This document shows positions 38,874 to 58,736 of a stretch of 64,000 bases of DNA, piece by piece (within the stretch, counting starts at the first letter, position 1; every line of letters begins with the position of its first letter). Origin of the DNA: an uncultured Clostridia bacterium (GTDB lineage: Bacteria; Bacillota; Clostridia; Christensenellales; Borkfalkiaceae); the NCBI GenBank assembly GCA_947588985.1, contig CANQBG010000004.1, forward strand, positions 1,667 to 65,666, given 5' to 3'. Made by a program: the position numbers and the translations under genes. The notes beneath the pieces were generated by a model. It ran no database searches. It saw only the letters and a list, made by a program, of their open reading frames with translations, and was not told where the DNA came from.

Positions 38874-41800
38874 TCAGAACTGCTTGCCGGGAAGGACCGC
38901 AACTTCTGCGGGTGCGCTTACCGTAGCGGAAGCGGGAGTACCGTAGAACTCCAACTTATCAATACTGACATACTTGTTGCCCGACGCGCTGACAGTCAAG
39001 TTGAAAACGATCTGGTAGAAGCAGTCCGTCCAATCGTCTGTACCCGCCGTAATATCGACGGCAACGCCCTTCTGATAGGTGATTTCCTTCGTAGAAATCG
39101 GCGTAGCACCTTCAGCCGTGGGATCCGTTTTATAGACTTTAAGCGTCACACTATTGACCGTAATGCTCCCGCCGTCCGTCAACTGAAGCGTGATCTTTTC
39201 GACCTTTCCGGGAATCGCCGTCTTTCCTGTAAGGGCACGGTCTTTATCGGTGCAGTTCGAGTTCTTGCCGCCGAAACGCCAAGGCTTTTGCGTGTTTGCA
39301 TCCACCGCTGCATTTCCTTCCACAGCCCAAGTGACATTTTCATACTCCACATCGCCACTCTTGTCATAGGCGTTGTTTTTCCCTATGGGCTGTTCGTCGC
39401 TATTCAGGGAATAAAGCAACTCTGCAACCGCTTCGCTCTCGCCTGCGGTCTCTACCTCAATGGTAGCGTCACCATTGACCGTAAACTTATAGGTATTTTC
39501 GTCCGTTGCTGTGAGCGTTTCGCCGTAAACCTTCACGGAAACGATCTTCTTGCCCTGCTCCGGAACGACTTTGAACGTCACTTCTGCGCCATTCGTCGCT
39601 TTGTTGTTCTGAGGAAGTTCGCTGACCGTGGCACCTTCGTGTTCACCGATTGTAATCGTCGATTCGCCACGCGTATTCTTCACGAGATACACATATGTGC
39701 CGCTGTTGGAGGCGAATTCAATGGTGGTGCCCTCGTGATTCTTGATATAGCCGCAGATCACGACGATATCATGCTGAACAGGAGCCGCAACGCCATCGCT
39801 GAGATTGATCGTGTACACGAGAATCTCTTTTGTGGAATCGGTCAAATCCACCAAAGTGAGGTTTTGATAGTAGTTCCCCTTGTCGGTGGGATTGGCTTTG
39901 ACAATACCCGTCATATAGACGACTTGCTGCGTAAAGCTACCACTTCCCGTGCATTCCTCTTCTGCAAGGGCGAGGGCCTCTTCAACGGTAAGGGGCTCGG
40001 TTTCAGAACCGTATTTCTCGTCATCGTGCTCGGGCTCTTCTTCGCCGCCGGGGCCGGGAGCGGGCTCTTCGCCGCCGCCTACCTTCGTCCAAGTCGTGAA
40101 GGTGGGATAATTCGTGCCGTCTTTATCGACTTCGATCGTGCCTTGGAAATTCTTCACAAAGCCGTAGCAGACAACATAGTCGCCAACCGTAAGCGGGCTA
40201 TCCGCGGGGATGGGATTGGGGGCCGGCATAGCGTCGCCCCAATTGATCGTGTAGAGTTTGAGCTGCGTCGTGCCGCCCTTCTCGTCCGCGATCATAACGG
40301 AGCTGAGGCCGTAGGTTTTGAAAATGGTACCGACATTGGTGACATAGCCCTTGACATAGACTTTGGCATTTGCACCATTGACTTGATAATAGCTGCCGTC
40401 CGCAAGGTCCTGCGCGAGCTCGAGGATCTCGGCAACGGTGTAAGGATTGCTCTCGGTGCCCTTTTCGCCGCTCGGCGTTGTGCTGCCGGTGCCGCTCATG
40501 TTGCCGAAGTGGCCGACGAAGTTGGAGGAGCCGGACAAGTAGCTTACCGGGCTTGCGGAGATGGTGTTGAAATCGTTATAGGTGCCGAGGTAGTAGGTAA
40601 CGTTGTTGACGTCGAAGGTGAATACCTTGTTCGTGGTATCCCACTTCCAAGTCTGCGTGGAGGCATCGACGAACTCCATCCGATGGCTCGAGTTGAGTTC
40701 GAGATATTTGCCGTCGCTCTTGAGCTGGATCGTCCAACCATCGCCGGAGGCGGTGAGGGTATACTGAGCCGCTTCTTCATAGTTCTCGGTGGTGAAGCCG
40801 AAGTTGCTTTCGTTGACGGTTCCCGCGGAATACAGCCACTTTTCAAGATTGCCTTGATAGAGCGCGAAGATGTAATCGCCGGCAACGGGGGCTTCGAGCG
40901 CCTGGAAGGTGGCGGCGGGCTTGGCCGCGACGTTGAGGGTGATCGTGGCCGTCGTGGTCTCGGTGCCCAAGGTGAGGGTCGCGGTGAGGGTGAGGGCGGT
41001 AGCCTTGGCGGGGAGCTCGGTGATCGTGACGGTGTTGCCCGAAACGGACGCCCAAGCGGGAGCATCCGCGATCGCCCAAGAAATTTCCGCGCCCAAGAGG
41101 TCTACATCCGCGGGAAGGATGGTGACGTTGCCGGCCACCTTGGTTTCAAGCGGGCCGACAGCCTCCACGTTCGCCTTGGCGTCTGCGAGGAGTTCGGTGG
41201 CGCTCGCCTTATAGTTGCGGACGGTGAAGAAGCCATAGGCGGTGTAGTCCCCGATCGTGTAGGTGACTTCGACCTCGGTGTTCTTATTGGTCGCGACGGG
41301 ATTGACGGTGAGCGTGCCGTTCTCGTAGGAGACGGTGGCGCCGTCTTTCTTGCCCATGACGGTGTAGGTGATGGTGACGCCCTGTTCGGAAGTGGGCATC
41401 GGGAAGGACTGATCCGACGTGATGAGGCCCGAGAAGTTCGTCTTGACCTTGGCATTGACGGCGTCTACGGCGGCCTTGACCTTGGCGCCATCGGTATTGG
41501 TGCCCTCTGCGTTCACCTTGGTGATGTCGCTTGCGAGGACGGGCTGGATCTGGTAGCCATTGTAGTTGCCGAGGAGACCCGTGATATCGACGTAGGTATC
41601 GACCTCGATGGATTTCCACATAGCGAGGAGATCGGCGCGCTCCGCGTCGGTACGGCCAACATATTTGGAGAAACGGACGGGGATGGAGACATCGCCGCGC
41701 TCCACGGTGAACATGTAGGTGTTGGTCTGATCATCGACAGCATCGGGAGCCGTCTCGACGGATTTTACTTTCCAACCGGAGAGGCTGACGAGCGTGGACT

Positions 41801-42797
41801 CGTGCCAAATCATGGAAGGAACGCCGGAGAGGAGATCGGTATCGAACGCATAGATCTTTTCTCTCGGGTTGATGGGCTCTTGGTCGTCCACGGTAGCCGT
41901 GCCGCCGCCGTTGTTTTCCCAAAGGCCATTGAAATTCTTGGCGGTATCATTGGAGACGGTGATGTGCGCGCCTTCAACGTATTTATCGATGTTGTCCTTA
42001 TCGATCTTGATCCGATACAGATAGTAGCCGCTGCAGAAGTCGTCGTCGATCATGAAGAGGGTCGCATTGCCGTAGCTTGCGGACGTCTCCAAAACGTTGA
42101 CGATGTAGCCGCTGAGGGTGAGCGGGTAGCCGTCGATGGAATACATCTTATTGACGGACTGCCTGTGCGAGAGCGCGGGCACGACGTTGAAGGGATAGCT
42201 CATGGAAGCTTCTTCTTCGCCATAGGTGAAGGTAGCCTTGATCTTGACGGCCGTAAGCTCATCGCCGGGCGTGACGACGACTTTGGTCCCATCGAGCGCG
42301 ATGAAATCGGCGTAATCGGGATCGACGCTCCAAGCGATCGTAGCCGTCTTGCCCTGCACCGTGACGGAAGTATCGAGGTCGAAATCCTCGGAGACGGCGG
42401 TGTTCCTCTGCGGGAACGAATACCGCTGCATGAAGGTGTAGACATCGAGCTTGCCGACGCGGACGATGAAGTCTTTGGAGGCGCTGCCGGAGGAAATGGT
42501 GAGCGTGACTTCGGTGACTTCATCCTGAAGGGTGACTTTGGCAGTGTACTGCTCGCCGCCGTCCTCAATGGCGATCGCGTTCGTGTTGCTCGATTTCCAC
42601 TTGACAGAAACAGAGTTGTTTTCCCCGATCCGCTTGGGCAAGCTGAAGTCCTCGCTCACAAGCGTCTCGGCCTGAGGGAAGATATACGCTTTGATCGCGT
42701 CTCCCGCAGATCCGCCACCGCATGCGACGATGCCGAAGATCATGCAGATCGCACACAGGATCGTTGACGCAATAAGCGCCAGTTTCTTGCTTCTCAT
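38874..42797 (-). CDS. giant surface lipoprotein with Ig-like and several OB-fold-like modules (candidate extracellular nucleic-acid binding protein)
   Basis: Lipobox IFGIVAC-GGG. 1307 aa. Repeated beta-rich modules, and several segments resemble the OB modules of extracellular nucleases (KVYVKGYVTNVG...LKLYTINWG; VVYMTGIVKANP...ILVYTINL). The domain calls are tentative. Confidence 0.6.
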   Translation of the reverse strand: MRSKKLALIASTILCAICMIFGIVACGGGSAGDAIKAYIFPQAETLVSEDFSLPKRIGENNSVSVKWKSSNTNAIAIEDGGEQYTAKVTLQDEVTEVTLTISSGSASKDFIVRVGKLDVYTFMQRYSFPQRNTAVSEDFDLDTSVTVQGKTATIAWSVDPDYADFIALDGTKVVVTPGDELTAVKIKATFTYGEEEASMSYPFNVVPALSHRQSVNKMYSIDGYPLTLSGYIVNVLETSASYGNATLFMIDDDFCSGYYLYRIKIDKDNIDKYVEGAHITVSNDTAKNFNGLWENNGGGTATVDDQEPINPREKIYAFDTDLLSGVPSMIWHESTLVSLSGWKVKSVETAPDAVDDQTNTYMFTVERGDVSIPVRFSKYVGRTDAERADLLAMWKSIEVDTYVDITGLLGNYNGYQIQPVLASDITKVNAEGTNTDGAKVKAAVDAVNAKVKTNFSGLITSDQSFPMPTSEQGVTITYTVMGKKDGATVSYENGTLTVNPVATNKNTEVEVTYTIGDYTAYGFFTVRNYKASATELLADAKANVEAVGPLETKVAGNVTILPADVDLLGAEISWAIADAPAWASVSGNTVTITELPAKATALTLTATLTLGTETTTATITLNVAAKPAATFQALEAPVAGDYIFALYQGNLEKWLYSAGTVNESNFGFTTENYEEAAQYTLTASGDGWTIQLKSDGKYLELNSSHRMEFVDASTQTWKWDTTNKVFTFDVNNVTYYLGTYNDFNTISASPVSYLSGSSNFVGHFGNMSGTGSTTPSGEKGTESNPYTVAEILELAQDLADGSYYQVNGANAKVYVKGYVTNVGTIFKTYGLSSVMIADEKGGTTQLKLYTINWGDAMPAPNPIPADSPLTVGDYVVCYGFVKNFQGTIEVDKDGTNYPTFTTWTKVGGGEEPAPGPGGEEEPEHDDEKYGSETEPLTVEEALALAEEECTGSGSFTQQVVYMTGIVKANPTDKGNYYQNLTLVDLTDSTKEILVYTINLSDGVAAPVQHDIVVICGYIKNHEGTTIEFASNSGTYVYLVKNTRGESTITIGEHEGATVSELPQNNKATNGAEVTFKVVPEQGKKIVSVKVYGETLTATDENTYKFTVNGDATIEVETAGESEAVAELLYSLNSDEQPIGKNNAYDKSGDVEYENVTWAVEGNAAVDANTQKPWRFGGKNSNCTDKDRALTGKTAIPGKVEKITLQLTDGGSITVNSVTLKVYKTDPTAEGATPISTKEITYQKGVAVDITAGTDDWTDCFYQIVFNLTVSASGNKYVSIDKLEFYGTPASATVSAPAEVAVLPGKQF

Positions 42798-42812: not shown

Positions 42813-44084
42813 TTATTTGATCTTGATGTTGGAATAGCTCGGGACGGTGACTTGCCCGGAGCCCGCCTCGAATTGGTAACAGCCCTTGATGGTGAGGACC
42901 GACCCCACTTGGATCGCGCCGGAATAGCCTTCCGGCACTTCCACCGTGAAGGTGAAGGAGGGCGTGGAGCCGTCTACTTCCGTAGCGGTCCCCTCGAAGG
43001 TGAGCTTGGTCCCCTCGAGGTTGACGGACGTGACGGTGAGGTCGCTATAGAAATTGGAAGTGATCTTTTGGGTGTAGTACGTTTGCGTCTCGTCGAAGCA
43101 GAGATAGTAAGCGACTTGCGATCTCCACGTCTTATTCGGGTCGCCCTTGGAATTGTAGTCGCTGAGCTGTACGCCCGTGAGCTGCCAACCCCCATCGTGC
43201 TTTTGCAGGACCCCGATGATGTGATAGAGGTCCCCCACCCGCATGCTCGCCAAGGAGGCGATGTGGCCGGCATAGAGCGTGAGGCTATATACCTTGCCCG
43301 TCTCCTCGTCGTATTGCCCGAGCGTGAACGTGAGCGCGCCCGAGCTCGCCGTGTACATCTCCGAGGCGTAGGCCACAAGGCGGACCTTGGTGTATTCCGC
43401 GTATGTATTGGGCGACGTGACGATATCTTTCACCGTGGCGTCGATGGCCTCGATATCGTAGATGGGATCCTTGAGCTTGGAGAAGAGGTGGGCCTGTACG
43501 CTACGGGCGAACTCCTCGGCCTTCTGGAAATACTTATAGTAGCTGCTCGTGGCGTCCTCATTGTTATAGGAGAAACCGTTTTCGACGAGCTCGAGGTTGA
43601 GCAGTTTGAATTTTTCCTTGGCCGTCTTGCGGTACCACACATAGCACATGGGCCGGCCGCCCGAGGAATCGCCCTTGGGCACGTCGCCCGTGCCCGATTC
43701 GAGGACGACCTCGGCGCCCTGCAGACATTCGTTGGTGAAGTTACTCGCGGCCTTGCCCCAACGTTCCCAGCCTGCGGTGCTCTCGGGCGTATCCACGCCC
43801 AAGTAGCGCACGGCAATGGTGCCCCCCTCTTCGAGCGCGAAGTTGGAGGTGTCGCCATCGGTGGTGTCTCCGACAAGGGTGGCCTTGCCGATCCCGCCGC
43901 CGCCTTTCTTCATCAGCGTCTTGCCCTCGTAGCTCTTGGAGAGCTTGAGCGTCTTGGTGATCTTATCGAAGTGCTCGGTGTTGTCCGTGATCTTGGGCTT
44001 TCCGCCGCCGCACGCGCCGAGGATACTCCCCATCGCGATCGCCGCGACGGTGGCCAATATCAAAAATAATTTTTTCGTTTTCAT
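42813..44084 (-). CDS. lipoprotein with staphylococcal (thermo)nuclease domain
   Basis: Lipobox SILGAC-GGG. The SNase core is IAVRYLGVDTPES...CYVWY...LNLELVENGFS, followed by OB-like modules. Confidence 0.8.
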   Translation of the reverse strand: MKTKKLFLILATVAAIAMGSILGACGGGKPKITDNTEHFDKITKTLKLSKSYEGKTLMKKGGGGIGKATLVGDTTDGDTSNFALEEGGTIAVRYLGVDTPESTAGWERWGKAASNFTNECLQGAEVVLESGTGDVPKGDSSGGRPMCYVWYRKTAKEKFKLLNLELVENGFSYNNEDATSSYYKYFQKAEEFARSVQAHLFSKLKDPIYDIEAIDATVKDIVTSPNTYAEYTKVRLVAYASEMYTASSGALTFTLGQYDEETGKVYSLTLYAGHIASLASMRVGDLYHIIGVLQKHDGGWQLTGVQLSDYNSKGDPNKTWRSQVAYYLCFDETQTYYTQKITSNFYSDLTVTSVNLEGTKLTFEGTATEVDGSTPSFTFTVEVPEGYSGAIQVGSVLTIKGCYQFEAGSGQVTVPSYSNIKIK

Positions 44085-44096: not shown

Positions 44097-45530
44097 TTAT
44101 TTCCCGCCGCATGCGTAGTAGGCATCTTCGAGCGCTTTGTGCGGCGCCTTTTGGCCGAGCATCGCATACTGCACGACGGTCGTCATCTGCGCACGGGCCG
44201 TGGAGGAACCGACGAATGCGGGAGAGGTGAAGAAGCGCTCGGTGAGAAGCTGCGCCGCGGCAGCCGCCTTGGAAGTGACGAGATCCTTCTTGACGGTGAT
44301 ATCCTTCCCTGTCTCGGGGTCTTTCTGCGCGAGGAAGGCAGCGTAGCCCTCTTCCTCATAGACCTCGGTGCGCATGGGGTTGTAGCCGCTCTCTTTTGCA
44401 AACTTGGCCTGGAATTTGATATCGAGCAGTTCTTTGATGAACTGGAAGGTCATGATCTGCTTCTCGGTGGGGTTGGCCGCCTTGTGGCCGCCCGCAAGCA
44501 TGACAAGGGAAGGCCCCTGGCTGATGCACTCCGCGTGGAGCTCGCCATCGCGCATGGTGCCGGGGATGGGCGCGACTTCCGTCGTGAAATCGTTGCCGGC
44601 CTGGTTGCTTGCGCCGCCCGAGGAACCGATGCAGAATACGAGGCCGCCGTTCTCCGGCCCTTTGATGAAGAGGCCGCTCGTGTAGCTATTGTACTCCTGC
44701 TGCGTGGTGAAGTATCCGAGATCGTGGTATTCTGCGATCTCGCCAAGCCATTCTTCGGCGCCGCTGTTCACAAAGAGGAAGTGGTTGGCGGGATCGGGGT
44801 CCGTGTAGCCGAAGTTCCGCTGCGCCGCCATGGTGATGAACCAGTTGGCCTCGCTGTCGTAGCCGAGAGGGGTGCAGGTCGGCCACATCTGCCGCGCTTC
44901 CTTGCACATCTTCCAGAGATCGTCCCACGTTTCGGGAGCCTCACTATAGCCGAGCTTTTTGAGCGCATCGGGGTTGTAATAAAGAAGCTCGGTGGACTTG
45001 ACGAAGGGAAGGGTGAGGAGCGCCGTCTCGGTGAGGCCCGCATCGGCGTAGCCCGTGAAGTTCTTCGCGCGGCCCTCTTCGAGGTAGCCGGGGATGAAGT
45101 TTTCCACTTCCTCTTCGGTGAAGCCGATGCGATCCACGGTGTAGTCCACTTCATCTACGGTGTAGGTGTAGCTCTCGCCGTTTGTGAGGTATTGGTCCAT
45201 ATCCACCACTTTGCCGCTCTCGATGTACTGGGCGACGTGGTCGGCATAGCAATAGGCGAGATCGGGCTGGAGGCCTGCGGTAAGGTCCTGACGGACTTTA
45301 TCCAAAACCTCGTCGTATCCGCCGGGTTTGGTGTGCTCCACCGTCCAGCCGGGATACTTTTCCTCAAACGCCGCGATCGCCTCCTCCGTTACGGTAGCAA
45401 GCGCGTCGCCCTGCGAAGAGTAGAACAAAATCGTGTGATTATAGTCCGCTCCGCCGCCGCACGCCGCGATCGTAACGCAGCCCGTGATGGCCATACAGCT
45501 CGCCAGCGCAATTGTGATAAGCTTCTTCAT
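44097..45530 (-). CDS. ABC transporter substrate-binding lipoprotein (family 1 / CUT1-type)
   Basis: Lipobox TIAAC-GGG. 477 aa with a MalE-like fold pattern. Upstream of two MalFG-type permeases. Confidence 0.8.
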   Translation of the reverse strand: MKKLITIALASCMAITGCVTIAACGGGADYNHTILFYSSQGDALATVTEEAIAAFEEKYPGWTVEHTKPGGYDEVLDKVRQDLTAGLQPDLAYCYADHVAQYIESGKVVDMDQYLTNGESYTYTVDEVDYTVDRIGFTEEEVENFIPGYLEEGRAKNFTGYADAGLTETALLTLPFVKSTELLYYNPDALKKLGYSEAPETWDDLWKMCKEARQMWPTCTPLGYDSEANWFITMAAQRNFGYTDPDPANHFLFVNSGAEEWLGEIAEYHDLGYFTTQQEYNSYTSGLFIKGPENGGLVFCIGSSGGASNQAGNDFTTEVAPIPGTMRDGELHAECISQGPSLVMLAGGHKAANPTEKQIMTFQFIKELLDIKFQAKFAKESGYNPMRTEVYEEEGYAAFLAQKDPETGKDITVKKDLVTSKAAAAAQLLTERFFTSPAFVGSSTARAQMTTVVQYAMLGQKAPHKALEDAYYACGGK

Positions 45531-45617: not shown

Positions 45618-46628
45618 TCAACCCTTCGTGCCGCTCTTGGAAACGCCGCGCATGATGTATTTCCGGCAGAAGATGAAGAGGATGAGAAGAGGAAGGCTGA
45701 CCATGCAGACGGCCGCCATCTTGAGGGTGTCGAGCGTCTCGGAGGTGCCGTAGAGACCGCCGTAGATCGTCCAATTCTCGCCCCAAGGGCTCGTCGGCTG
45801 GACGCGGTCTACAAATCCGCCCGTGACCCAGTTGGTGATGAGCTGCCACTGCTGGGCGTTGACGAGGCGGGGCCAGATGTAGCTATTCCATGTGCCGATG
45901 AATTTGAGCAGCGTGATGGAGATGAGCGTGGGCGCGGTGAGCGGGATCATGACTTTGAGCAGGTACCCGAGATCGCTGAGACCATCGACTTTCGCCGCTT
46001 GATAGAGCGAGTTGGGGATCTGCATGAAGTTGTTCCGAAGCAGGTAGATATAGTAGACGCTGACGAGGAAGGGCAAGATGAGCACCGTGTAGGAGTTGGT
46101 CATGCCCGCCTTGGCTACCGTGATGTAGTTGGAGACGGTGAAGAGTTCGCCGGGGATCATCATCGTGGCGAGCATGACGGCGAAGAGGATGTTCTTCCCC
46201 TTGAAGTCCATGCGCGCGAGGGCGTAGGCCGTTACCACAATGACGACGAGCCCCAAAAAGGTGGAGAGCAGCCCGACGACAATGGTGTTGATGAGGATCT
46301 GCCCGAAGGAGGCGCCTCCGCGCGTGCCCGTCACCTGATGGAATACCATCCAATAGTTCTTCCACTGGAAGCTGTGCGGGAAGAAGGTGGGCACCGATTC
46401 GCGGAACTCCATCTCCGTCTTGACGGAGGACATGAGCATCCAATAGAAGGGCAGGAAGGCAAGGACTGCGCAGACCGTCAAAAACAGATAGACAAAGACA
46501 TTTTTGACGATGTGCAGGATCTTGGCCCGCTTTTGGGCCTTCTCGGCGTCGAACCCCTCGTCGCCGGCGGAGAGATCCCATTGCCCGACAACTACGGGCG
46601 CTTTCTGATTCTTAGATGATTTCGCCAT
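45618..46628 (-). CDS. carbohydrate-type ABC transporter permease (MalG-like)
   Basis: Six TM helices. EAA loop YQAAKVDGLSDLGYLLKVMIPL. Confidence 0.85.
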   Translation of the reverse strand: MAKSSKNQKAPVVVGQWDLSAGDEGFDAEKAQKRAKILHIVKNVFVYLFLTVCAVLAFLPFYWMLMSSVKTEMEFRESVPTFFPHSFQWKNYWMVFHQVTGTRGGASFGQILINTIVVGLLSTFLGLVVIVVTAYALARMDFKGKNILFAVMLATMMIPGELFTVSNYITVAKAGMTNSYTVLILPFLVSVYYIYLLRNNFMQIPNSLYQAAKVDGLSDLGYLLKVMIPLTAPTLISITLLKFIGTWNSYIWPRLVNAQQWQLITNWVTGGFVDRVQPTSPWGENWTIYGGLYGTSETLDTLKMAAVCMVSLPLLILFIFCRKYIMRGVSKSGTKG

Positions 46629-50118: not shown

Positions 50119-50417
50119 TTCTCGTCGGCGCCGCCCGATTGTTCCGTGGGATCCTGCGCCTCGGCTGCAGGTTCATCGGAAAATTCTTCGGGTAAACCGG
50201 CAACGACCGACGGGGATCCGTCGGTTCGTTTCACATTGGACTGAAACGCGGCCTCCCTCTTTTTGAGGTTGTCCCGCATTTCCTGATATTGTTTTTTGTT
50301 GATCACGGGGATCAGAAAATAGGCGACGATACAGAGCACAACGAGTACTCCGAGCACAACGAAGAAGATGATATCCGTTGAACTGAGCGGATTGAGCGCA
50401 AGTAATGAGCGAAGCAT
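50115..50417 (-). CDS. small single-pass membrane protein
   Basis: 100 aa. TM helix IIFFVVLGVLVVLCIVAYFLIPV. GGAGG RBS. ATGA overlap with the downstream gene. Confidence 0.55.
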   Translation of the reverse strand: MLRSLLALNPLSSTDIIFFVVLGVLVVLCIVAYFLIPVINKKQYQEMRDNLKKREAAFQSNVKRTDGSPSVVAGLPEEFSDEPAAEAQDPTEQSGGADEK

Positions 50418-50636
50418 ATAATCTCTCTTCCTCCCAAGAGTGAATTCCGATTCAAACCGATCCGGACGAAAAGCGCGTCCCTTGTTCCGCTATGTATCCC
50501 AACAATTAAAATTATAGCATTCTGCGGCGGAGATGTCAATCTGAATTCAATTTATTGTTTCCCCAAAAACCGACAAATTTCCGAAAACTCCGCATTTTCC
50601 CAAACAAGGGAGGGGAAACGCCTCTCCCTCGCGAAA

Positions 50637-52277
50637 CTATTGCTTGCGCCGACGCACGAGCGCAGCCGCAACGGCCGCAGGAAAAGCCGCCGCCGCGAAC
50701 ATTCCCGCGCCTGCGCCGATGGTGCCGTTGCACCCTTTCTTGTTCGAGGAGCCCTCGGAAGGCGTGCTTCCGCCGGGATTCTCTTCGCCGGGGTTATCGT
50801 CGCCGCCGGGGTTATCTTCGCCGCCGGGGTTGACGTCGCCGCCGGGGTTGACGTCGCCGCCGGGATTCACGTCGCCGCCGGGGTTATCGTCGCCGCCGGG
50901 CGTTTCCGCGGGGGCATACTCTATCAGAATGCTATCGAGATACGCCGCGCCCGAACTCTTTTCTAATTCATAGGTCAGCGCAAAATAGGTATCCTCGCAA
51001 TCGAGCACCCATGTGACGCCGCCCTCCGTGACCGTCTTGGTGCCGTGGTCGGTGCCGTTCGTGGGCTTTTTCGCGACTTCGCCATAGGGCGTGTCCGAGG
51101 TGAGGAGCTTCCAAGGGCTGTCCGTCGTCCCCCGATAGCTCTTTACGGTGATCGATCGAATGGGGCGCGACGCAGCCACATTGCTCGCAAAGTAATAGCT
51201 ATCTCGATTTTTGTTGAACTGCATCCCCTTGTTCGCGGGATAAGAGCCGCTCCCGCCATAGATGAAGGCGACGCCGCCGATGCCGCCCTCGGACCATCTC
51301 TTGAATCCGTAGCCATCCGTGAGGGCAAAACTCTCGAGCGTGATCGTGATCGTATCCGCCTCGGGGTCCACCGGCCCTACCACGTCGCCCACGGGGTCCT
51401 TGGGGCCGACGGCGCCTTCCGACCATACCATGTCCGCGTACTCGGGGTGATCGACGAAGGGATTGCGGTTGCCCTGAATGTCCGCCGCCGCCTCGTTGCG
51501 CGCTATTTCGAGCGCGTCCACGGGGTCGTCATTGTGCCACTTTAAGAGCAGTTCCACCGCCTCATCCTCCGAGGCGGCCGAGATGACGTTGGTGAATTTC
51601 AGCGTGCCGAAGTAGCTCGCGTTCCCGCTTCCGTTGGTCGTGCCGCCGACGTTGGCATAGGTATTGTAGTGCGTGTACACATACATGACGATGCGCGCGA
51701 CGTCGCCCTTCACCGCGTCGATGGGTTCGAATACCGCCCCCTGCTCATACCCGGCAACGGCGATCTGCGTATCGCTCTTGTCGCGGTACCAAATCGTCGT
51801 ACCGCTTGTGGTTTCCCCGTATTTATCGTTGTCGCGCGCGGAGTTGACCCGGCTCTCGGTGGGACGGATGTGCAGTAGGTCGCTTCCGCCGCCGCCCTGC
51901 CCCCAAAGGCCGTTCGAGAGGCTCTGACACCAGACATGCTCCCTGTTCCACGTGCCCGAGTGGCCCGATTCCCACGTTGCGGAGAGCTTGGCTTGCGCAT
52001 AGAATTCCATGAGCTCGCCGTCGGGGCCGGGGTCCGTCCGCTGGACATAGGTGGGGTTCTTGCAGTCCTCGTAGCTCGTGTAGCGCGTATGCGTCTTTGT
52101 GATGAGGTCGTGGATCTGCCCGAGGAGAGGCAAGCCTTCCGTCTCGGTGACGGAGGCATAATAATCCCCTTCCGTGGCGGCCGACGCCGCCGTCCAACCG
52201 CCCCAGCCCGCGAACATGAGGGTAAGCCCCATGGCCGCCGCGGCCAAACCGAACACTGCCTTCTTTGCGTGGATCAT
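50637..52277 (-). CDS. secreted endonuclease I (EndA/Vvn-type) family nuclease with C-terminal repeats and hydrophobic anchor
   Basis: Trimmed to MIHAKKAVFGL (GGAGG RBS; signal peptide). NREHVWCQS, DLLHIRPTE and VNSARDNDKYGE match Endonuclease_1 motifs. The tail has (PGGDVN)n repeats, a TM helix and RRRKQ. Confidence 0.8.
   Translation of the reverse strand: MIHAKKAVFGLAAAAMGLTLMFAGWGGWTAASAATEGDYYASVTETEGLPLLGQIHDLITKTHTRYTSYEDCKNPTYVQRTDPGPDGELMEFYAQAKLSATWESGHSGTWNREHVWCQSLSNGLWGQGGGGSDLLHIRPTESRVNSARDNDKYGETTSGTTIWYRDKSDTQIAVAGYEQGAVFEPIDAVKGDVARIVMYVYTHYNTYANVGGTTNGSGNASYFGTLKFTNVISAASEDEAVELLLKWHNDDPVDALEIARNEAAADIQGNRNPFVDHPEYADMVWSEGAVGPKDPVGDVVGPVDPEADTITITLESFALTDGYGFKRWSEGGIGGVAFIYGGSGSYPANKGMQFNKNRDSYYFASNVAASRPIRSITVKSYRGTTDSPWKLLTSDTPYGEVAKKPTNGTDHGTKTVTEGGVTWVLDCEDTYFALTYELEKSSGAAYLDSILIEYAPAETPGGDDNPGGDVNPGGDVNPGGDVNPGGEDNPGGDDNPGEENPGGSTPSEGSSNKKGCNGTIGAGAGMFAAAAFPAAVAAALVRRRKQ
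50771..50899. repeat. 18-bp tandem coding repeat (PGGD[VD]N units)
   Basis: gccgccggggttgacgtc-type units repeat about 7 times inside the nuclease gene. Confidence 0.75.
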
Positions 52278-52867
52278 TGTATGTTTCCTCCTGCCTGTTG
52301 TTCGCGCATTCTGAGCCAGCACTTCCTGCACATCGCCACATAGCGGTCGTTGCCGCCGAGCAAAACTTGCGAGCCCTCCGTGACGATCATGCCCCGATCG
52401 TCGACGCGCGCGTTGACCGTTGCCTTGGCGCCGCATGTGCAGACCGATTTAATTTCGCTGATGGATTCCGCGATCTCAAACAGCCGCTTGCTGCCCGGGA
52501 ACAGATGCGTGGTGAAATCCGTCGCGAGGCCGAAGCACAGCACGGGGATGTCTTTCTCCATCACGATGTCGGAGAGCTCGTCTACCTGCTCGGGCGTGAG
52601 AAATTGACATTCATCGACGATGACGACGTCGCGATCGGCATACGACTCCTCATAGAGCCGGAAAAGATCGACGTCCGCCGCCACGGAGACGGCCTCCTGC
52701 CAAAGGCCGATGCGGGACTTCACGACGGTGGCCCCGTCGCGCGTGTCGATGGCGGGCTTGAGGAGGAGCACCTTCATGTTGCGCTCCTCGTAGTTGAACT
52801 TGGTGATGAGGGCCTGCGCCGTCTTGGAACAACCCATCGTCCCGAATTTGAAATAGAGTTTGGCCAT
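52274..52867 (-). CDS. tdk: thymidine kinase
   Basis: GTMGCSKT P-loop. 197 aa. C-terminal zinc motif CTCG...CRKC. Confidence 0.92.
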   Translation of the reverse strand: MAKLYFKFGTMGCSKTAQALITKFNYEERNMKVLLLKPAIDTRDGATVVKSRIGLWQEAVSVAADVDLFRLYEESYADRDVVIVDECQFLTPEQVDELSDIVMEKDIPVLCFGLATDFTTHLFPGSKRLFEIAESISEIKSVCTCGAKATVNARVDDRGMIVTEGSQVLLGGNDRYVAMCRKCWLRMREQQAGGNIQ

Positions 52868-52896: not shown

Positions 52897-54198
52897 TCAT
52901 GCGATGATATCGTAAATGAGAGGCTCATCCTCGGGCATGGTGGGCCCGAACGTCGTCGCGGAGAGCAAGATCTGCGCGGCGTTTTCGAAGCGGGAGGGAT
53001 CGTTTGAGAAGAGATAGGCAACAGGCTCGCCCTTTTCGACGAAGTCCCCCGTCTTTTTCTTCAAGAGGATGCCCGCGCTGTAATCGATCGCGTCCTCCAC
53101 CTTGTTGCGGCCCGCGCCGAGCGCGAGGCTGGAAAGGCCGTATTGTTCGGCGTCCGCCCGCAAAATGTAGCCGCTCACAGGGCAGAGCACGGGATACGAA
53201 TATTGCGCCTTGGCGAATTTCTCCGTGTCTGCGATGCAACTTGCGTCTCCGCCCTGCGCCGCCACCGTCTCCATGAATTTTCGGAGCGCGCTGCCGTTTT
53301 CGATGGCCTTCCGTGCGAGCGCCTTGGCCTCTTCGGGGGTACCCATGTCCGCGAGGGAGAGCATGTAAGCCGCCAGCGTAAGGCACACTTCGGTGAAATC
53401 CTCCGGGCCGCGGCCCTTCAGCGTCTCCACCGCCTCGATGACCTCGAGGGAGTTGCCGATGGCATAGCCGAGCGGCCGATCCATGTTGGTGATGAGGGCC
53501 ACCGTCTTTTTGCCCGCGCCCTTGCCGATATCCACCATGAGGCGGGCGAGCGCCTTGCTCTCCTCCGTGCTCTTCATGAAGGAGCCGCTACCCGTCTTGA
53601 CGTCGAGCACGATGCAGTCGTCGTCGGCGGCGAGCTTTTTGCCCATGATGCTCGAGGCGATGAGGGGCATGCTGTCTACCGTCGCCGTCACGTCGCGCAG
53701 GGCGTAGAGCTTTTTATCGGCGGGGGCGAACTGCCGCGACTGCCCCACGATGGCGAGGCCGATCTCGTTGACCTGCCGCACAAACGCCTCGTCGGAGAGG
53801 GTGGTCGCAAAGCCAGGAATGGCCTCGAGCTTATCCACCGTGCCGCCCGTATGGCCGAGGCCGCGGCCGCTCATCTTGGCGACTTTCACGCCGTAGGAGG
53901 CGACGATGGGCGCGACGACGAGGCTCGTCTTATCCCCCACGCCGCCCGTGGAATGCTTGTCTACGCGGATCCCGCGGATGGCGGAGAAATTGAGCTTCTC
54001 CCCCGAATCGCGCACGGCATAGGTGAGGTCGCAGGTCTCCCGCACCGTCATGCCCTGAAAATAGATGGCCATGCACAGCGCGGAGATCTGGTAATCGGGG
54101 ATGCTGCCGTCGGTGACGCCGCGGATGAAGAAGCCGATCTCCTCCGTGGTGAGTTCGCCGCCGTCGCGTTTCTTCTTGATGATATCGTACATGCGCAT
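52897..54198 (-). CDS. pdp: pyrimidine-nucleoside (thymidine) phosphorylase
   Basis: Trimmed to MRMYDIIKKKRDG (AGGAGG RBS). DKHSTGGVGDKTSL motif. Confidence 0.92.
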   Translation of the reverse strand: MRMYDIIKKKRDGGELTTEEIGFFIRGVTDGSIPDYQISALCMAIYFQGMTVRETCDLTYAVRDSGEKLNFSAIRGIRVDKHSTGGVGDKTSLVVAPIVASYGVKVAKMSGRGLGHTGGTVDKLEAIPGFATTLSDEAFVRQVNEIGLAIVGQSRQFAPADKKLYALRDVTATVDSMPLIASSIMGKKLAADDDCIVLDVKTGSGSFMKSTEESKALARLMVDIGKGAGKKTVALITNMDRPLGYAIGNSLEVIEAVETLKGRGPEDFTEVCLTLAAYMLSLADMGTPEEAKALARKAIENGSALRKFMETVAAQGGDASCIADTEKFAKAQYSYPVLCPVSGYILRADAEQYGLSSLALGAGRNKVEDAIDYSAGILLKKKTGDFVEKGEPVAYLFSNDPSRFENAAQILLSATTFGPTMPEDEPLIYDIIA

Positions 54199-54248
54199 CG
54201 GAAATTCCTCCTGAAGGAAGCGGCTCTTGCCGCCCTCCTCTCTCAATG

Positions 54249-55724
54249 TTATGCCCGCTTGCCCGCGGCGATGTATTCCGCGAGAAGATCGCGCGCGTAG
54301 AATTCCTCCTGCAGGCGGGCGATCTCCGTGATGTTGTTCGATGAATATGTGGATGTGTAGCTGTCCACGATGATGTAATACGTCGCGTTGTCGGAGACGG
54401 CGGAGGTGGAAATCGTGGAGTAGCAGTGATAGTTGTCCCGATCGGACAGGAACCTCTTCCGAAGGTCGCTGCCCTTGATGGAGCCGAGCACGAGTTGATT
54501 ATCGAAGGGGAGGATGGAAAAGACGTCGGCATAGGTGACGTTTCCCTTCGCGAGCGAATAGGGGCTGCGCGTCTTGAGATACCCGCCGCCGAGCACGATG
54601 GAATATTCCTCCCCCCACACTTCCGTGCCCTTCTCATAGTAGAGCCGGGCCACCTGCTCCGCGATCGCATTGGAGCTCCACGAGGAGGAATTCTTGCCGA
54701 GCACCGTCTTATAGGGGTCGCTGTCGGGGAAGTACTTGCTATAGATCTCCTCCACGGAGGCGTCGGACCAATAGTTCTCCGAATAATCGGAGGCGGAAAC
54801 GATCCGCGGCGTCACTTCGTATTGCTTCGTATCGAAGTGGTAGACGACGTCCGCACAGCTCACGCCGCTGTTTTCCCCGCCGCCCTGCAAGTGGTAGACG
54901 CCGTATTCATCCTGCAAAATGTAGGCCTTGTGGGAATGCGCCTCAAACACGAGATCGACGGCGCCGTCGGAGAGGGCCGTGTCGTAGTAAGGGATATCCG
55001 CGTTGCTCACTTGTGTGACCTTGGAGGAAGAATAGCTGTCGCCGCCCTCATGGATGGAGTAGACGATGAACCCGCACCCCTCTTCGCTCCTCAGGCGCGC
55101 GGACTCCGCCTCGACGAGCGCGGTGAGTTCGTCGCCCGTCGCAAAGCGCAGACCCTTCTTAAAGTCGCCCGAGATGGAGCCGAGGCAGTCCCCGATGGCG
55201 CCGATGATGCCGATCTTGAGGCCGTCCCGCTCCACCACCGTGGAGGGCTGACAATAGCTGACGGGCTGCCCGTCTTGCGTGACGTTGATGGCGAGGAAGG
55301 GAAACTCCGCAAGCTCGCTGTTGGGCCCGAGCACGTCTGCGCCCCAATCGTATTCGTGGTTGCCGAGCGTCATGGAGACGAACCCGACTTCGTTCATCCA
55401 CTCCGTCATGAGCTTGCCCTTGGTCGTGGACGACTCCACCGTGCCCTGCCACATGTCTCCCGACGAGAGCAGAACTTCCTCGCGCGAGGGGTCGTCGTAG
55501 AGCCGCTTCATATACGCCGTAAACTCATCCACGCCGGGCTGCCCCGCCGTGTCGATGAATTTGCCGTGCAAGTCGTTGACGGCATAGAAGGTGAGCCGCG
55601 CGCTCCCTGCGGGATCGGGCGGGACGGGGTTGGGGGTTTGGGGCTTTTGGCAGGCGCAGAGGGCCGCAAGGCCAAAGGTCGCCGCAAGAAGCGCCGCAAC
55701 TACTCTATGCAAATGTTTTTTCAT
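54249..55724 (-). CDS. lipoprotein metallophosphatase / 5'-nucleotidase
   Basis: Lipobox LAALCAC-Q. NDLHG, GDMWQG and GNHEYDWG are calcineurin-like motifs. A C-terminal 5'-nucleotidase domain follows. Confidence 0.88.
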   Translation of the reverse strand: MKKHLHRVVAALLAATFGLAALCACQKPQTPNPVPPDPAGSARLTFYAVNDLHGKFIDTAGQPGVDEFTAYMKRLYDDPSREEVLLSSGDMWQGTVESSTTKGKLMTEWMNEVGFVSMTLGNHEYDWGADVLGPNSELAEFPFLAINVTQDGQPVSYCQPSTVVERDGLKIGIIGAIGDCLGSISGDFKKGLRFATGDELTALVEAESARLRSEEGCGFIVYSIHEGGDSYSSSKVTQVSNADIPYYDTALSDGAVDLVFEAHSHKAYILQDEYGVYHLQGGGENSGVSCADVVYHFDTKQYEVTPRIVSASDYSENYWSDASVEEIYSKYFPDSDPYKTVLGKNSSSWSSNAIAEQVARLYYEKGTEVWGEEYSIVLGGGYLKTRSPYSLAKGNVTYADVFSILPFDNQLVLGSIKGSDLRKRFLSDRDNYHCYSTISTSAVSDNATYYIIVDSYTSTYSSNNITEIARLQEEFYARDLLAEYIAAGKRA

Positions 55725-55776: not shown

Positions 55777-56181
55777 TCAGGAAAGATCCTTCTCGGTGAA
55801 GGAAAACGGCAGGAGCATGTCTAAGGGGTAGGCTTCGAAATGCGCCGAATTGCCGAGGAGGACCCGGAAATCTTTTCCGCAAAATTCCGCCATAACCTGC
55901 CTGCAAACGCCGCAGGGGGCGCAGAAGGGAGCCGTCTCCCCCTCCTTGCCGCCGACGATGGCGATGGCCGAAAATTCCCGCTCGCCCTCGCTCACGGCCT
56001 TGAAGATCGCCGTGCGTTCGGCACAGACGGTGGCGGGATAGGCCGCGTTTTCGATGTTGCAGCCCGTGTAGAGTTTTCCGCTCTTTGTGAGGAGCGCCGC
56101 CCCCACGCGAAAGTGGGAATAGGGCGAATACGACTGTTCCCGCGCGCCTTCCGCGGCGGCCATCAACTGTGCGTCTGTCAT
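55777..56181 (-). CDS. cdd: cytidine deaminase
   Basis: 134 aa. CAERTAI and PCGVCRQ zinc-binding motifs. Confidence 0.93.
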   Translation of the reverse strand: MTDAQLMAAAEGAREQSYSPYSHFRVGAALLTKSGKLYTGCNIENAAYPATVCAERTAIFKAVSEGEREFSAIAIVGGKEGETAPFCAPCGVCRQVMAEFCGKDFRVLLGNSAHFEAYPLDMLLPFSFTEKDLS

Positions 56182-57341
56182 TGCAAAACTTCCTTCAAAA
56201 AGCTCTCGCCGCTCGTATCTTTCTGCGGCACGCCGAAATAGTCGAGGACGGTCGCGCCGATATCCGAAAAGCTCGCGCGCGTGCCCAAATTCACCCCGCC
56301 CTTGATCTTGTTGCCATAGATGAGCATGGGCGTGTATTCGCGGGAATGGTCGGTGGAAGGCGTGGAGGGATCGCAGCCGTGGTCGGCCGTGATGAGGAGC
56401 ACGTCGTCCTCCCGCATCCCCGTGAGAAAGCCCGTGAGGAATTCATCGAACTCGGTGGCCGCGGCGGCATAGCCCGCGACGTCGTTGCGGTGGCCGTATT
56501 TCATGTCGAAATCCACGAGGTTGACAAAGCAGAGCCCGTTGAAATCGCGCGATTGCAGCTCCTGCGTCACCTGCATGCCGTGGGTGTTGGACGTCGTCCG
56601 ATGGCTCTCGGTGATGCCGCAGCCCGCAAAGATATCGAAGATCTTGCCGACGGAGACGGTATCATAGCCCGCCGCTTTCAAGAGGTCGAGCACGGTATCC
56701 GCGGGGGGCGTGAGGGAGAAATCGTGGCGATTGGCCGTGCGCGTGAAGGGGTAGTCCCCCGTGAAGGGACGCGCGATGACCCGGCCCACGTTGTGCGGTG
56801 CGGTGAGCATCTCGCGCGCGATCTCGCAGTCGCGGTAGAGCTCATCGAGGGGTACCATGTCCTCATGTGCGGCGATCTGAAAGACGCTGTCCGCCGACGT
56901 GTAGACGATGAGCGCGCCCGTTTCGAGGTGCTCGCGGCCGTAATCCTTGATGACTTCCGTGCCCGAATAGGGCAGGTTGCAGATGACTTTTCTCCCCGTG
57001 CGCTTCTCGAATTCCGCAAGAAGATCGGCAGGGAATCCATGGGGGTAGGTCGGGAGCGGGTCGGGCGAGACGATGCCGGCGATCTCCCAATGGCCGATCG
57101 TGGTATCCTTCCCCGCGGAACGCTCCGTCATGCGCGCGTAGCTCGCGATGGGCGACGCAACGCCGCCGCCCACACCCTCGATGTTGAAGAGCCCCATCCG
57201 GGTGAGATTGGGACAGGAAAAATTGGGATGATTGCGGATGGCGCCCAAGGTGTTGCTGCCTTCGTCGTGCCAGCGGCCGGCGTCGGGAAGTTCCCCCACG
57301 CCGAAACTATCGAGTACGATCAGAAAAAATCTCTTTGCCAC
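56178..57341 (-). CDS. deoB: phosphopentomutase
   Basis: ORF 56178..57368 trimmed to GTG (VAKRFFLIVLDSFGVGELPDA) with GGGAGG 5 nt upstream. Typical DeoB N-terminus and DHGCDP motif. Confidence 0.9.
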   Translation of the reverse strand: MAKRFFLIVLDSFGVGELPDAGRWHDEGSNTLGAIRNHPNFSCPNLTRMGLFNIEGVGGGVASPIASYARMTERSAGKDTTIGHWEIAGIVSPDPLPTYPHGFPADLLAEFEKRTGRKVICNLPYSGTEVIKDYGREHLETGALIVYTSADSVFQIAAHEDMVPLDELYRDCEIAREMLTAPHNVGRVIARPFTGDYPFTRTANRHDFSLTPPADTVLDLLKAAGYDTVSVGKIFDIFAGCGITESHRTTSNTHGMQVTQELQSRDFNGLCFVNLVDFDMKYGHRNDVAGYAAAATEFDEFLTGFLTGMREDDVLLITADHGCDPSTPSTDHSREYTPMLIYGNKIKGGVNLGTRASFSDIGATVLDYFGVPQKDTSGESFLKEVLQ

Positions 57342-57360
57342 GGTTGCCTCCCGGATTGCT

Positions 57361-58080
57361 TTACGCAAGCTCCAATGCGATCTTCATCATGGCCGTGAAG
57401 GAATTCTGGCGCTCCTCGGCCGTCGTGTTTTCCTCGGGATGGAGGAAGCTATCGCTCACGGTGCAGATGCAGAGCGCATGCTTGCCCGCGCGGGCGGCGT
57501 TGGCGTAGAGCGCCGCGCTCTCCATTTCCACCCCCAAAACGCCCATCTTGGCCCACTGCATGCCGCTCTGTGCGTCGTCGTAGAACATGTCCGAAGAGAA
57601 GATGTTGCCCACCTTGAAGCGGAGGCCCGCCTCTTCGCAGAGTTCCGCCGCACGGCGAAGGAGGCCGAAGTCGGCAATGGGACAGAAGGTGCCGGGCAGC
57701 CCATATTGCTGCATGTAGTTGCCGTTGGTGCACGCGCCTTGCGCCAAGATGAGGTCGCGCACGTGCAGGTCCTCATCGAAACTTCCGCACGAGCCGACGC
57801 GGATGATGTTCTCCACGCCATAGAAATTAAAGAGCTCGTAGGAGTAGATGCCGATGGAGGGCTGCCCCATGCCCGAGGCCATGACGGAGACGCGCTTGCC
57901 CTTATACGTTCCCGTGTAGCCGTTGACGCCGCGCACGTTGTTGACGAGGACGGGCGAGGAGAGGAAGTTCTCCGCGATGAATTTGGCGCGAAGGGGATCG
58001 CCGGGCATCAAAACGGTCTCGGCAAAGTCGCCGTAGGCGGCCGAGATGTGCGGCGTGGGGATATTCTTGTGTTCGCTCAT
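57361..58080 (-). CDS. deoD: purine nucleoside phosphorylase, DeoD-type
   Basis: Trimmed to [12 protein letters not shown] (GGAGG RBS). [14 protein letters not shown] and [10 protein letters not shown]. Confidence 0.92.
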
Positions 58081-58736
58081 AACAGGTGTTCCTCCTTGAC
58101 GATCTTCACGATCCGGGAAGTGCCCAAGCGGTCGGCGCCGAGCGCGACGAAGTCCTCTGCGTCCTTCACGGAGGAGATGCCCCCCGCCGCCTTGATCTTC
58201 ACGTCCTTCCCGACGTATTGTTTGAACAGTGCGACGTCCTCCCGCGTGGCGCCCGCCTTGGAGAAGCCCGTCGACGTCTTGATGAAGTCGGCCTTCGCCG
58301 CGGTGACGATCTCGCACATCTTGATCTTCTCTTCCTCCGTGAGAAGGCAGGTCTCGATGATGACCTTCAGGATCTTGCCCCCGCACGCCGCCTTGACGGC
58401 GACGATCTCATCGAGGATCTTTTCATAGTTCCTGGCCTTGAGGTCTCCGAGATTGATGACCATGTCGATCTCGTCGGCCCCCGCCGCGACGGCGTCCTTC
58501 GTCTCGAATACCTTCACGGCCGTGGAGCTATAGCCGTTGGGGAAGCCGATGACGGTGCAGATGGCGACGTTCCCCGCCGCATACTGCTTGGCCTGTCCCA
58601 CAAAGCAGGGCGGAATGCAGACGGAAGCCGTGCCGTAGCGGACGCCGTCGTCGATCAAGGCGCGGATGTCCTCCCACGTCGCCGTGACGGCGAGCTGCGT
58701 GTGATCGCATCTCTTCAAAATTTCCCGAATATCCAT
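58077..58736 (-). CDS. deoC: deoxyribose-phosphate aldolase
   Basis: 219 aa. [17 protein letters not shown] (Schiff-base Lys context) and IKAAGGI. Confidence 0.92.

Follow-up and report, generated by a model that had tools for sequence, protein, structure and literature searches.

A conserved nuclease-linked ABC transporter cassette in a Clostridia genome, candidate machinery for nucleic-acid foraging

A 64,000-nt stretch of DNA from an uncultured Clostridia-lineage bacterium (hereafter the window, to whose numbering all positions refer) contains, between positions 38874 (the stop of a 1307-aa open reading frame, ORF) and 58736 (the start of deoC), a run of 16 minus-strand genes that an earlier note had described as a single supercluster of ~20 kb for scavenging extracellular nucleic acid. 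ORF, Pfam and NCBIfam analysis recovered all 16 genes with both end coordinates exact, but the single supercluster gave way to two operons, here termed Units A and B, each with its own 12/12 promoter and with a hairpin following the endonuclease I gene that ends the first. Unit B, an eight-gene cassette encoding lipoproteins, an ABC transporter and two further membrane proteins, is the conserved entity of the cluster. From gene content, operon layout, conservation, catalytic residues, nearest structural relatives and recurrent neighbourhood, all as observed here, we propose, with a probability of roughly 0.6, that the locus serves nucleic-acid foraging, i.e. that two separately promoted operons and a convergent helper operon provide for the capture and cutting of nucleic acid and the import of the resulting phosphorylated fragments.

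Unit A reads, in order of transcription, deoC-deoD-deoB-cdd, a 5'-nucleotidase lipoprotein gene, pdp, tdk and the endonuclease I gene. Unit B comprises genes for membrane proteins of 100 aa and 425 aa, an ATPase, two permeases, a substrate-binding protein (SBP), an SNase-domain lipoprotein and the 1307-aa lipoprotein. Within both units successive genes overlap by 4-8 nt or are separated by gaps of at most 87 nt, and the two are divided by a 220-nt gap between the endonuclease I and 100-aa genes in which the Unit B promoter sits. The following elements delimit them:

58794 to 58822, minus strand: Unit A promoter, sigma-70, TTGACA-17 nt-TATAAT, 12/12, 58 nt 5' of deoC
50608 to 50630, minus strand: GC-rich hairpin read from the sequence, GAGGGAGAGG-CGTTT-CCCCTCCC then TTGTTTGGG, just 3' of the endonuclease I stop
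50511 to 50539, minus strand: Unit B promoter, TTGACA-17 nt-TGcTATAAT, 12/12, with an extended -10
38827 to 38862, both strands: bidirectional terminator closing Unit B, a perfect 16-bp hairpin with T/A runs on either side

The hairpin at 50608-50630, which precedes the Unit B promoter, makes a weak terminator-like end to Unit A; a terminator scan made no call there, and returned many weak in-gene matches, in no excess over shuffled sequences, with only the 38827-38862 element convincing. Close relatives carry a comparably strong promoter 90-120 nt 5' of the cassette, so the two-unit layout is conserved. A structured 5' untranslated region for the cassette was considered, with GC hairpins visible in relatives, but was rejected on the 88-nt leader of the window (z = 0.26 against shuffles), and a search of the whole window against Rfam at the gathering threshold returned nothing, neither riboswitch nor leader.

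The distribution of Unit B was followed through its SBP. A scan of species-representative genomes, one for each species, gave at least 574 stretches encoding a relative, of which the best 80 loci (designated L plus a number) were analysed, and a search of metagenomes gave thousands of relatives. Collinearity was assessed by tblastn of the 16 window proteins against the best loci, and could be judged in the 57 with enough flanking sequence: the eight-gene cassette is collinear in 55, the exceptions being an orphan SBP paralogue (L019) and a six-gene version (L084). Two unrelated metagenome contigs, at 51-54% identity, likewise hold the eight genes in the same order, without the deo, pdp or endonuclease genes. 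This collinearity ties the transporter functionally to the SNase and OB-fold lipoproteins. The adjacency of Unit A is more restricted, the block from cdd to endonuclease I lying directly 5' of the cassette in the closest clade (SBP identity at least 59%) and in L041 and L043, with endonuclease I alone beside it in L058 and L062. In the most divergent locus (L084:2325-14985), where the SBP is 36% identical, a membrane protein that looks RDD-like from its translation precedes the six genes and stands in for those of 100 aa and 425 aa; beside that cassette, in divergent orientation, are deoC, an ORF of 525 aa that is apparently a cdd-deoB fusion, and pdp.

Carriers among the best 80 loci include rabbit, chicken, ruminant and human gut metagenome-assembled genomes (MAGs) labelled 'Clostridia', Christensenellaceae or Christensenella, bins of the CAG:238 and CAG:475 types, 'Bacilli' MAGs and, among Mollicutes, Anaeroplasma bactoclasticum ATCC 27112 (a Mollicute in NCBI taxonomy) together with several Anaeroplasma and Acholeplasmatales MAGs. 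Some typical cassettes (L030, L055, L067, L076) bear implausible labels, i.e. Corallococcus sp., Phascolarctobacterium succinatutens and Ruminococcus bicirculans bins, and NCBI taxonomy places Candidatus Fimimonas gallinarum in Myxococcaceae; such labels are probably binning or naming artefacts, and taxon names for cassette carriers therefore need caution.

The eight cassette genes are, in order of transcription:

50115 to 50417, minus strand: gene 1, single-pass membrane protein, 100 aa, charged tail (Pfam and NCBIfam matches sub-threshold only)
48841 to 50118, minus strand: gene 2, 425-aa membrane protein (no family or matching fold)
47750 to 48835, minus strand: gene 3, UgpC/MalK-type ABC ATPase, 361 aa (Pfam ABC_tran and OB_MalK; NCBIfam UgpC, E 2e-106)
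46644 to 47753, minus strand: gene 4, UgpA/MalF-like permease, 369 aa (Pfam BPD_transp_1; NCBIfam best match UgpA)
45618 to 46628, minus strand: gene 5, UgpE/MalG-like permease, 336 aa (Pfam BPD_transp_1; NCBIfam UgpE, E 9e-29)
44097 to 45530, minus strand: gene 6, substrate-binding lipoprotein, 477 aa, lipobox IAAC (Pfam SBP_bac_8; UgpB/dinucleotide-binding branch of CUT1)
42813 to 44084, minus strand: gene 7, SNase-domain lipoprotein, 423 aa, lipobox LGAC (Pfam SNase)
38874 to 42797, minus strand: gene 8, giant lipoprotein, 1307 aa, lipobox IVAC (Pfam aBig_2 and a weak OB match)

Pfam detects the SNase domain in 36/36 orthologues of gene 7, and the counterparts of staphylococcal D21, R35, D40, T41, E43 and R87 (D78, R93, D98, T99, E101 and R144 in the window protein) are invariant; since both catalytic and Ca-binding residues are retained in all 36, the lipoprotein should be an active enzyme. 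Its C-terminal half (~220 aa) has no assigned family. The giant lipoprotein has a conserved N-terminal core of ~640 aa, made up of aBig_2 domains and OB-like modules (~213-305 and ~335-445); its C-terminal part, with OB-fold modules at ~802-906 and ~928-1040, is highly variable, and orthologues range from 706 to 2427 aa. Pfam identifies aBig_2 in 31/37 of these, the OB-fold PF01336 in 18/37 (best E 2e-11) and BOF in 4/37, and hhalign connects the 213-305 module to the C-terminal OB modules with a probability of 72-81%. From this composition we infer that the giant lipoprotein binds nucleic acid.

The strongest indication of what the cassette transports comes from the SBP. Searched against the PDB, the family profile matches a Thermus protein best (7c0x and 7c0f, E ~5e-20), UgpB next (~5e-15) and then sugar binders. 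An AlphaFold2 (AF2) model of the window protein, with a mean predicted local distance difference test score (pLDDT) of 86, returns the same sequence of relatives in Foldseek, the top 25 matches all being the Thermus dinucleotide-binding protein (E 2e-23, TM 0.82), followed by M. tuberculosis and E. coli UgpB and then by sugar binders; the title of the top entry describes the protein as bound endogenously to uridylyl-3'-5'-phospho-guanosine (UpG). This Thermus thermophilus dinucleotide-binding ABC protein, deposited as PDB 7C0F and others, was reportedly described by Chandravanshi et al. in FEBS J in 2021 (as cited in PMC12718374); the window SBP differs in being ~70 residues longer and lipid-anchored.

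The eight Thermus residues that the depositors had mutated were mapped on to the window SBP by pairwise HMMER alignment at ~19% identity. Three ligand-site residues are identical (Thermus Y56, S127 and Q274 correspond to Y72, S179 and Q338) and three are conservatively changed (F79 to Y95, N81 to D97 and T240 to S303), all six counterparts being invariant across the SBP family. In place of W-x-x-W, the glycerol clamp of E. coli UgpB, the family appears to have a single invariant Trp, in the motif LGYDSEANWF, which counts against the phosphate-scavenging reading considered below. Glucose binders lack the phosphate-coordinating Tyr and Ser residues that UgpB shares with a glycerophosphocholine (GPC) binder and the UpG binder (PMC12718374). 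Whilst short of proof, these affinities suggest that the SBP is not an ordinary sugar binder, and are suggestive of dinucleotide or phosphodiester ligands; together, nearest relatives, retained residues and gene neighbours point to short phosphorylated fragments as the probable imported ligand. Orphan SBP paralogues (56-64% identity) occur away from any cassette gene at L018:4460-5803, L019:10001-11356 and L028:4414-5772. The MAGs of L018 and L028 also contain the full cassettes L008 and L017, and such a paralogue may act as an additional receptor for the cassette transporter.

The two cassette-specific membrane proteins are conserved without recognisable kin. The 100-aa protein keeps its cassette position in relatives. 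The AF2 model of the 425-aa protein (mean pLDDT 88) shows two long helices, one of them N-terminal and transmembrane, together with a beta-rich ectodomain and, at the C-terminus, a beta-sandwich; no relative was found with Pfam (across 34 orthologues), with NCBIfam or in a profile search of the PDB, and Foldseek returned no match at E < 1e-3, with generic Ig/CnaB-like matches confined to the C-terminal sandwich. Its family forms 153 representative clusters among 1.84 billion proteins. Remote homologues (L085:7480-8751, L086:6813-7793 and L087:825-1805) lie outside any ABC context, directly following giant unannotated proteins of 665-1743 aa on contigs of 26-28% G+C; because these members adjoin giant proteins and not ABC genes, the family may partner large surface proteins rather than the transporter.

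Beyond the cassette itself, the genes that recur around it concern nucleotide turnover. Two such features adjoin the cluster in the window:

35166 to 37952, plus strand: nrnA-nrnA-surE operon (Pfam DHH/DHHA1 at 35166-36248 and 36208-37233, SurE at 37224-37952)
34009 to 35118, minus strand: NT5C-guanylate kinase fusion, 369 aa (Pfam NT5C and Guanylate_kin)

The earlier note had placed the NT5C-Gmk, NrnA and SurE genes just upstream of the cluster; they exist, but lie downstream, with nrnA-nrnA-surE on the opposite strand and convergent on Unit B. The operon keeps this position and orientation in 15 loci, including the distant L030, L033, L049, L052 and L079, and the NT5C-guanylate kinase fusion adjoins nrnA in close relatives and in L041, L043 and L063. 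Unbiased clustering of flanking ORFs at 71 loci, a phylogenetically uneven sample in which counts are descriptive, ranks NrnA first (15/71), followed by SurE and thymidine kinase (13/71 each), 5'-nucleotidase and endonuclease I (12/71 each), Pdp (9/71) and, after clade-specific housekeeping synteny, phosphoribosyltransferase (6/71). The arrangement varies: L073, L075, L078 and L079 have a different 5'-nucleotidase paralogue, and L077 an endonuclease I-like gene 3' of the cassette. Recurrence of nucleotide-turnover neighbours, differently arranged, in distant lineages argues for function rather than inheritance alone.

Unit A supplies nucleoside enzymes together with two exported proteins:

58077 to 58736, minus strand: deoC, deoxyribose-phosphate aldolase, 219 aa (Pfam DeoC, E 7e-17)
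57361 to 58080, minus strand: deoD-type purine nucleoside phosphorylase, 239 aa (Pfam PNP_UDP_1, E 1e-38), its start overlapping the deoC stop
56178 to 57368, minus strand: deoB, phosphopentomutase, 396 aa (Pfam Metalloenzyme, E 4e-38)
55777 to 56181, minus strand: cdd, cytidine deaminase, 134 aa (Pfam dCMP_cyt_deam_1, E 4e-20)
54249 to 55724, minus strand: surface 5'-nucleotidase lipoprotein, 491 aa, lipobox LAALCAC (Pfam Metallophos and 5_nucleotid_C; NCBIfam multifunctional nucleotidase, E 2e-36)
52897 to 54201, minus strand: pdp, pyrimidine-nucleoside phosphorylase, 434 aa (three Pfam domains, E 1e-44, 7e-23 and 2e-19)
52274 to 52867, minus strand: tdk, thymidine kinase, 197 aa (Pfam TK, E 9e-44)
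50637 to 52277, minus strand: exported endonuclease I, 546 aa (Pfam Endonuclease_1, E 4e-38; signal peptide)

Past its catalytic domain the endonuclease carries ~200 extra residues, with a low-complexity (NPGGD/E)n linker and a hydrophobic C-terminal tail ending RRRKQ, without LPXTG, which suggests that the protein is anchored in the membrane by its C-terminus and not freely secreted.

In the mechanism that we propose, the giant OB-fold/Ig lipoprotein would hold extracellular DNA or RNA at the cell surface, where the SNase lipoprotein would cut it into 3'-phosphorylated mono-, di- and short oligonucleotides, the product type expected from SNase enzymology (micrococcal-type nucleases give 3'-phospho mono- and dinucleotides). 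Short phosphorylated fragments would then be captured by the UgpB/dinucleotide-binding-type lipoprotein and imported by the UgpC/A/E-type transporter, accompanied by the two cassette-specific membrane proteins. As the recurrent adjacency of their genes suggests, the two NrnA paralogues would degrade short oligonucleotides inside the cell, and SurE and NT5C would strip 3' and 5' phosphates there; known substrates of NrnA are 2-5-mers and pAp, and SurE is a 3'/5'-nucleotidase. Unit A may provide a parallel external route, in which endonuclease I would yield 5'-phospho-oligonucleotides and the surface 5'-nucleotidase nucleosides. Tdk and the Gmk fusion would salvage nucleosides and nucleotides, and Cdd, Pdp, DeoD, DeoB and DeoC would, by family assignment, convert nucleosides to bases, acetaldehyde and glyceraldehyde-3-phosphate. 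The earlier scheme, which set dephosphorylation before import, is thus probably in the wrong order where the ABC system is concerned: phosphorylated fragments would enter first, to be processed inside by the two NrnA proteins, SurE and NT5C.

Several observations weigh against the foraging proposal. The host is uncultured, and support for the proposal is computational. The OB match of the window's own giant lipoprotein is sub-threshold (21.6 bits against the Pfam value of 27). The lead of the Thermus protein in Foldseek is modest (E 2e-23, compared with 4e-21 for UgpB and 2e-20 for sugar binders), its identity to the window SBP is only ~19%, and two of the eight ligand-site residues are unmatched, Y224 being replaced by L287 and Y246 falling in a gap. 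Units A and B may be co-regulated, but when their promoters and the region upstream of nrnA were compared by k-mers, no shared operator emerged, only A-rich 8-10-mers, and the locus contains no regulator gene. Most distant relatives lack Unit A next to the cassette. Lastly, a surface 5'-nucleotidase and cytoplasmic nucleoside enzymes are equally compatible with nucleoside import, and the ABC system could be a nucleoside transporter because the locus holds no other. Weighed together, the scavenging pathway of the earlier note stands on gene content, the locked order of the cassette (the gene-order comparison it had called for holds for Unit B), its nucleotide-turnover neighbours and the affinities of the SBP, and falls short in the adjacency of Unit A, which is mainly a feature of one clade.

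The best surviving alternative, which we regard as unlikely, follows from the last of these points: in keeping with the order of steps in the earlier note, a CUT1-type ABC system would import nucleosides or deoxynucleosides as sugar-like ligands, after full external dephosphorylation by the surface 5'-nucleotidase, to feed Tdk, Pdp, DeoD and Cdd. Every cytoplasmic enzyme of Unit A acts on nucleosides, glycosides are common ligands of CUT1 SBPs, and a 5'-nucleotidase lipoprotein adjoins the cassette in the 12 loci counted above; most cassette loci, on the other hand, have no 5'-nucleotidase nearby. Neither would a 5'-nucleotidase remove the 3'-phosphates left by an SNase-type enzyme, and NrnA and SurE, the commonest neighbours, would be needless if nucleosides alone entered. 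The SBP, moreover, groups with phosphate-ester binders and retains their Tyr and Ser.

Two further explanations are less likely than this. Phosphate scavenging of the Pho-regulon type, to which we attach a low probability, would have the transporter import glycerol-3-phosphate (G3P), glycerophosphodiesters or other organophosphates, the link to the nuclease reflecting shared regulation and no relay of substrate. UgpC, UgpA, UgpE and UgpB are the best NCBIfam matches of the four transporter parts, UgpB structures are among the top structural matches, and phosphate starvation co-induces Ugp systems, nucleases and nucleotidases in many bacteria. The Ugp matches nevertheless all lie far under the curated equivalog cut-offs (for UgpB, 36.6 bits against 411), genes for a glycerophosphodiesterase, Pst or PhoU/PhoB are absent from the locus and its surroundings within the window, and the recurrent neighbours (NrnA, tdk, pdp and the phosphoribosyltransferase) are nucleotide-specific and not general phosphate genes. 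More improbable still is a non-nutritional cassette, adjacent to Unit A by descent in one clade, that degrades biofilm or host extracellular DNA or attacks other cells: the cultured mollicute A. bactoclasticum, whose species name refers to bacterial lysis, carries it, and Unit A accompanies it mainly in the closest clade, under separate promoters and with no shared operator, but an importer fixed in gene order with a nuclease argues for uptake of the product, and nucleotide-turnover neighbours recur in varied arrangements across distant lineages. Mycoplasma SNase homologues, for their part, are also called virulence factors (PMC12115388), a point in favour of that role.

By analogy of composition, the closest precedent for the cassette is a mycoplasma operon in which a P80/P81/MslA SBP-like lipoprotein, an SNase lipoprotein and a sugar-type ABC transporter are co-transcribed, with nucleotide-precursor import as the proposed function, and in which MslA binds DNA, whether single- or double-stranded (PMC3585158, PMC4045577, PMC12115388). 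Members are MAG_5030-5070 in M. agalactiae, MBOVPG45_0307-0311 in M. bovis, MslA/MGA_0676 in M. gallisepticum and mhp379 in M. hyopneumoniae. Both systems set a surface SNase lipoprotein beside an SBP-type lipoprotein, a sugar/Ugp-type ATPase and two permeases, and share a proposed logic of binding polynucleotide, cutting it and importing the precursors; in addition, the cassette itself reaches Mollicutes (Anaeroplasma and Acholeplasmatales lineages), and M. bovis has deoC and pdp a few genes from its SNase-ABC operon (gene table of PMC4045577). They differ in gene order, which is ATPase-permease-permease-SBP-SNase-big lipoprotein in the cassette and P80-SNase-ATPase-permease-permease in mycoplasmas (PMC3585158), in the three extra conserved genes of the cassette (the 100-aa and 425-aa membrane proteins and the giant OB/Ig lipoprotein) and in the host, here of Clostridia lineage with ~59% G+C, the cassette being found mainly in gut bacteria of that lineage. 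As the one lead towards sequence kinship with the mycoplasma lipoproteins, an Anaeroplasma SBP orthologue matches NCBIfam NF045826, 'P68 family surface lipoprotein', below threshold (E 4.4e-7, 28.7 bits, cut-off 200), and a literature text search for that family name found no paper. The A. bactoclasticum ATPase (L070:6444-7748) has 434 aa compared with 361 aa in the window, and its M. bovis counterpart MBOVPG45_0309 is given as 2103 nt (PMC4045577), so that the ATPase may have been progressively extended in Mollicutes; 3' of the A. bactoclasticum cassette lie an extra aBig_2 lipoprotein gene, TilS and a phosphoribosyltransferase.

A second, looser precedent is provided by the DNA-degradation loci of Candidatus Izemoplasma, Xianfuyuplasma and Hujiaoplasma, for which growth on DNA and induction by DNA were shown experimentally (PMC8289736, PMC8397711, PMC10470597). 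These free-living relatives of Mollicutes also consolidate secreted nucleases, phosphohydrolases, NrnA and ABC transporters. The transporter of the Izemoplasma loci, however, is a phosphate (Pst-type) ABC system (PMC8289736), whereas that of the window is of the CUT1/Ugp type with its own SBP, and Pfam and NCBIfam find no Pst genes among the cluster genes. Loci of this type also carry other nucleases (EddB, DNase/RNase), and the published descriptions mention no cassette of SNase, SBP and OB lipoproteins.

A third point of comparison is YhcR of Bacillus subtilis, which combines OB folds, SNase and 5'-nucleotidase in one wall-anchored surface protein and yields 3'-nucleotides, and is not known to have a dedicated importer; in the window the same domain set is distributed over separate lipoproteins tied to an ABC transporter. 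We found no paper describing the cassette in Clostridia or Christensenellales, nor one linking Christensenellales with an extracellular nuclease. The earlier claim that such a locus is undescribed for Clostridia is consistent with this, and has to be tempered by the close mycoplasma precedent outside that class (PMC3585158, PMC4045577) and by the Izemoplasma loci (PMC8289736, PMC8397711). Its comparison with polysaccharide utilisation loci, similarly, is apt in logic but not in parts, the 16 genes encoding no TonB-dependent receptor, SusD or regulator domains.

The remainder of the window is of lesser concern here. Upstream of deoC and on the same strand (58903-63988), Pfam identifies a double-zinc-ribbon protein of 118 aa, a radical SAM/SPASM protein and a member of the alpha-amylase family, followed by a 763-aa ORF that reads as a GH3-like glycosidase; none has an evident link to nucleic acids. 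The convergent gap between surE and the 1307-aa gene (37953-38870) holds a plus-strand GIY-YIG/UPF0213 ORF at 38351-38629 (PDB 1zg2, E 2e-5), flanked by repeats of 34 nt x 4.9 (37965-38130), 106 nt x 2 (38099-38309) and 22-nt units (38272-38334 and 38761-38816), with G+C dipping to ~0.51 nearby, and looks like a small inserted element. The region from ~4000 to 24000, with a G+C of 0.44-0.52 against 0.58-0.62 elsewhere, encodes two BspA-type leucine-rich-repeat surface proteins, two AAA ATPases, a trypsin-like protease, FtsK/SpoIIIE and a TraG/VirD4 coupling protein, and is probably an integrated conjugative element or its remnant. At 25067-28423 on the minus strand, a 1118-aa ABC ATPase-FtsX-like permease fusion (Pfam ABC_tran and FtsX; MacB-like) is unrelated to the cassette.

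To our knowledge, the textbook view is that bacteria must dephosphorylate nucleotides before uptake. We tentatively suggest, as a broader hypothesis that goes further than foraging and that we hold to be rather less probable than its opposite, that the cassette represents a previously unrecognised and widespread family of importers for 3'-phosphorylated di- or oligonucleotides or nucleotides, with its own capture-and-cut machinery and two new membrane subunits, that the mycoplasma nuclease-ABC operon is a reduced descendant of this complete form, and that many gut Clostridia import phosphorylated fragments directly and not only nucleosides or bases. The substrate of the mycoplasma nuclease-linked ABC system has long been conjectured (references of 2007-2013 cited in PMC4045577 and PMC3585158), and we found no report that determines it. 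The cassette makes this long-conjectured import of nucleotides or oligonucleotides testable, being sharply defined and widespread, with carriers that include Christensenellales-like Clostridia of the gut, abundant and for the most part uncultured, as well as A. bactoclasticum ATCC 27112, which is in culture, and it yields two conserved families of membrane proteins without detected relatives. Should the ligand prove to be a nucleotide or dinucleotide, the cassette would represent a new transporter specificity, would account for the way in which these gut anaerobes with small genomes live on the large gut pool of microbial and host nucleic acid, and would give the mycoplasma system, with its nuclease described as a virulence factor, an evolutionary origin.

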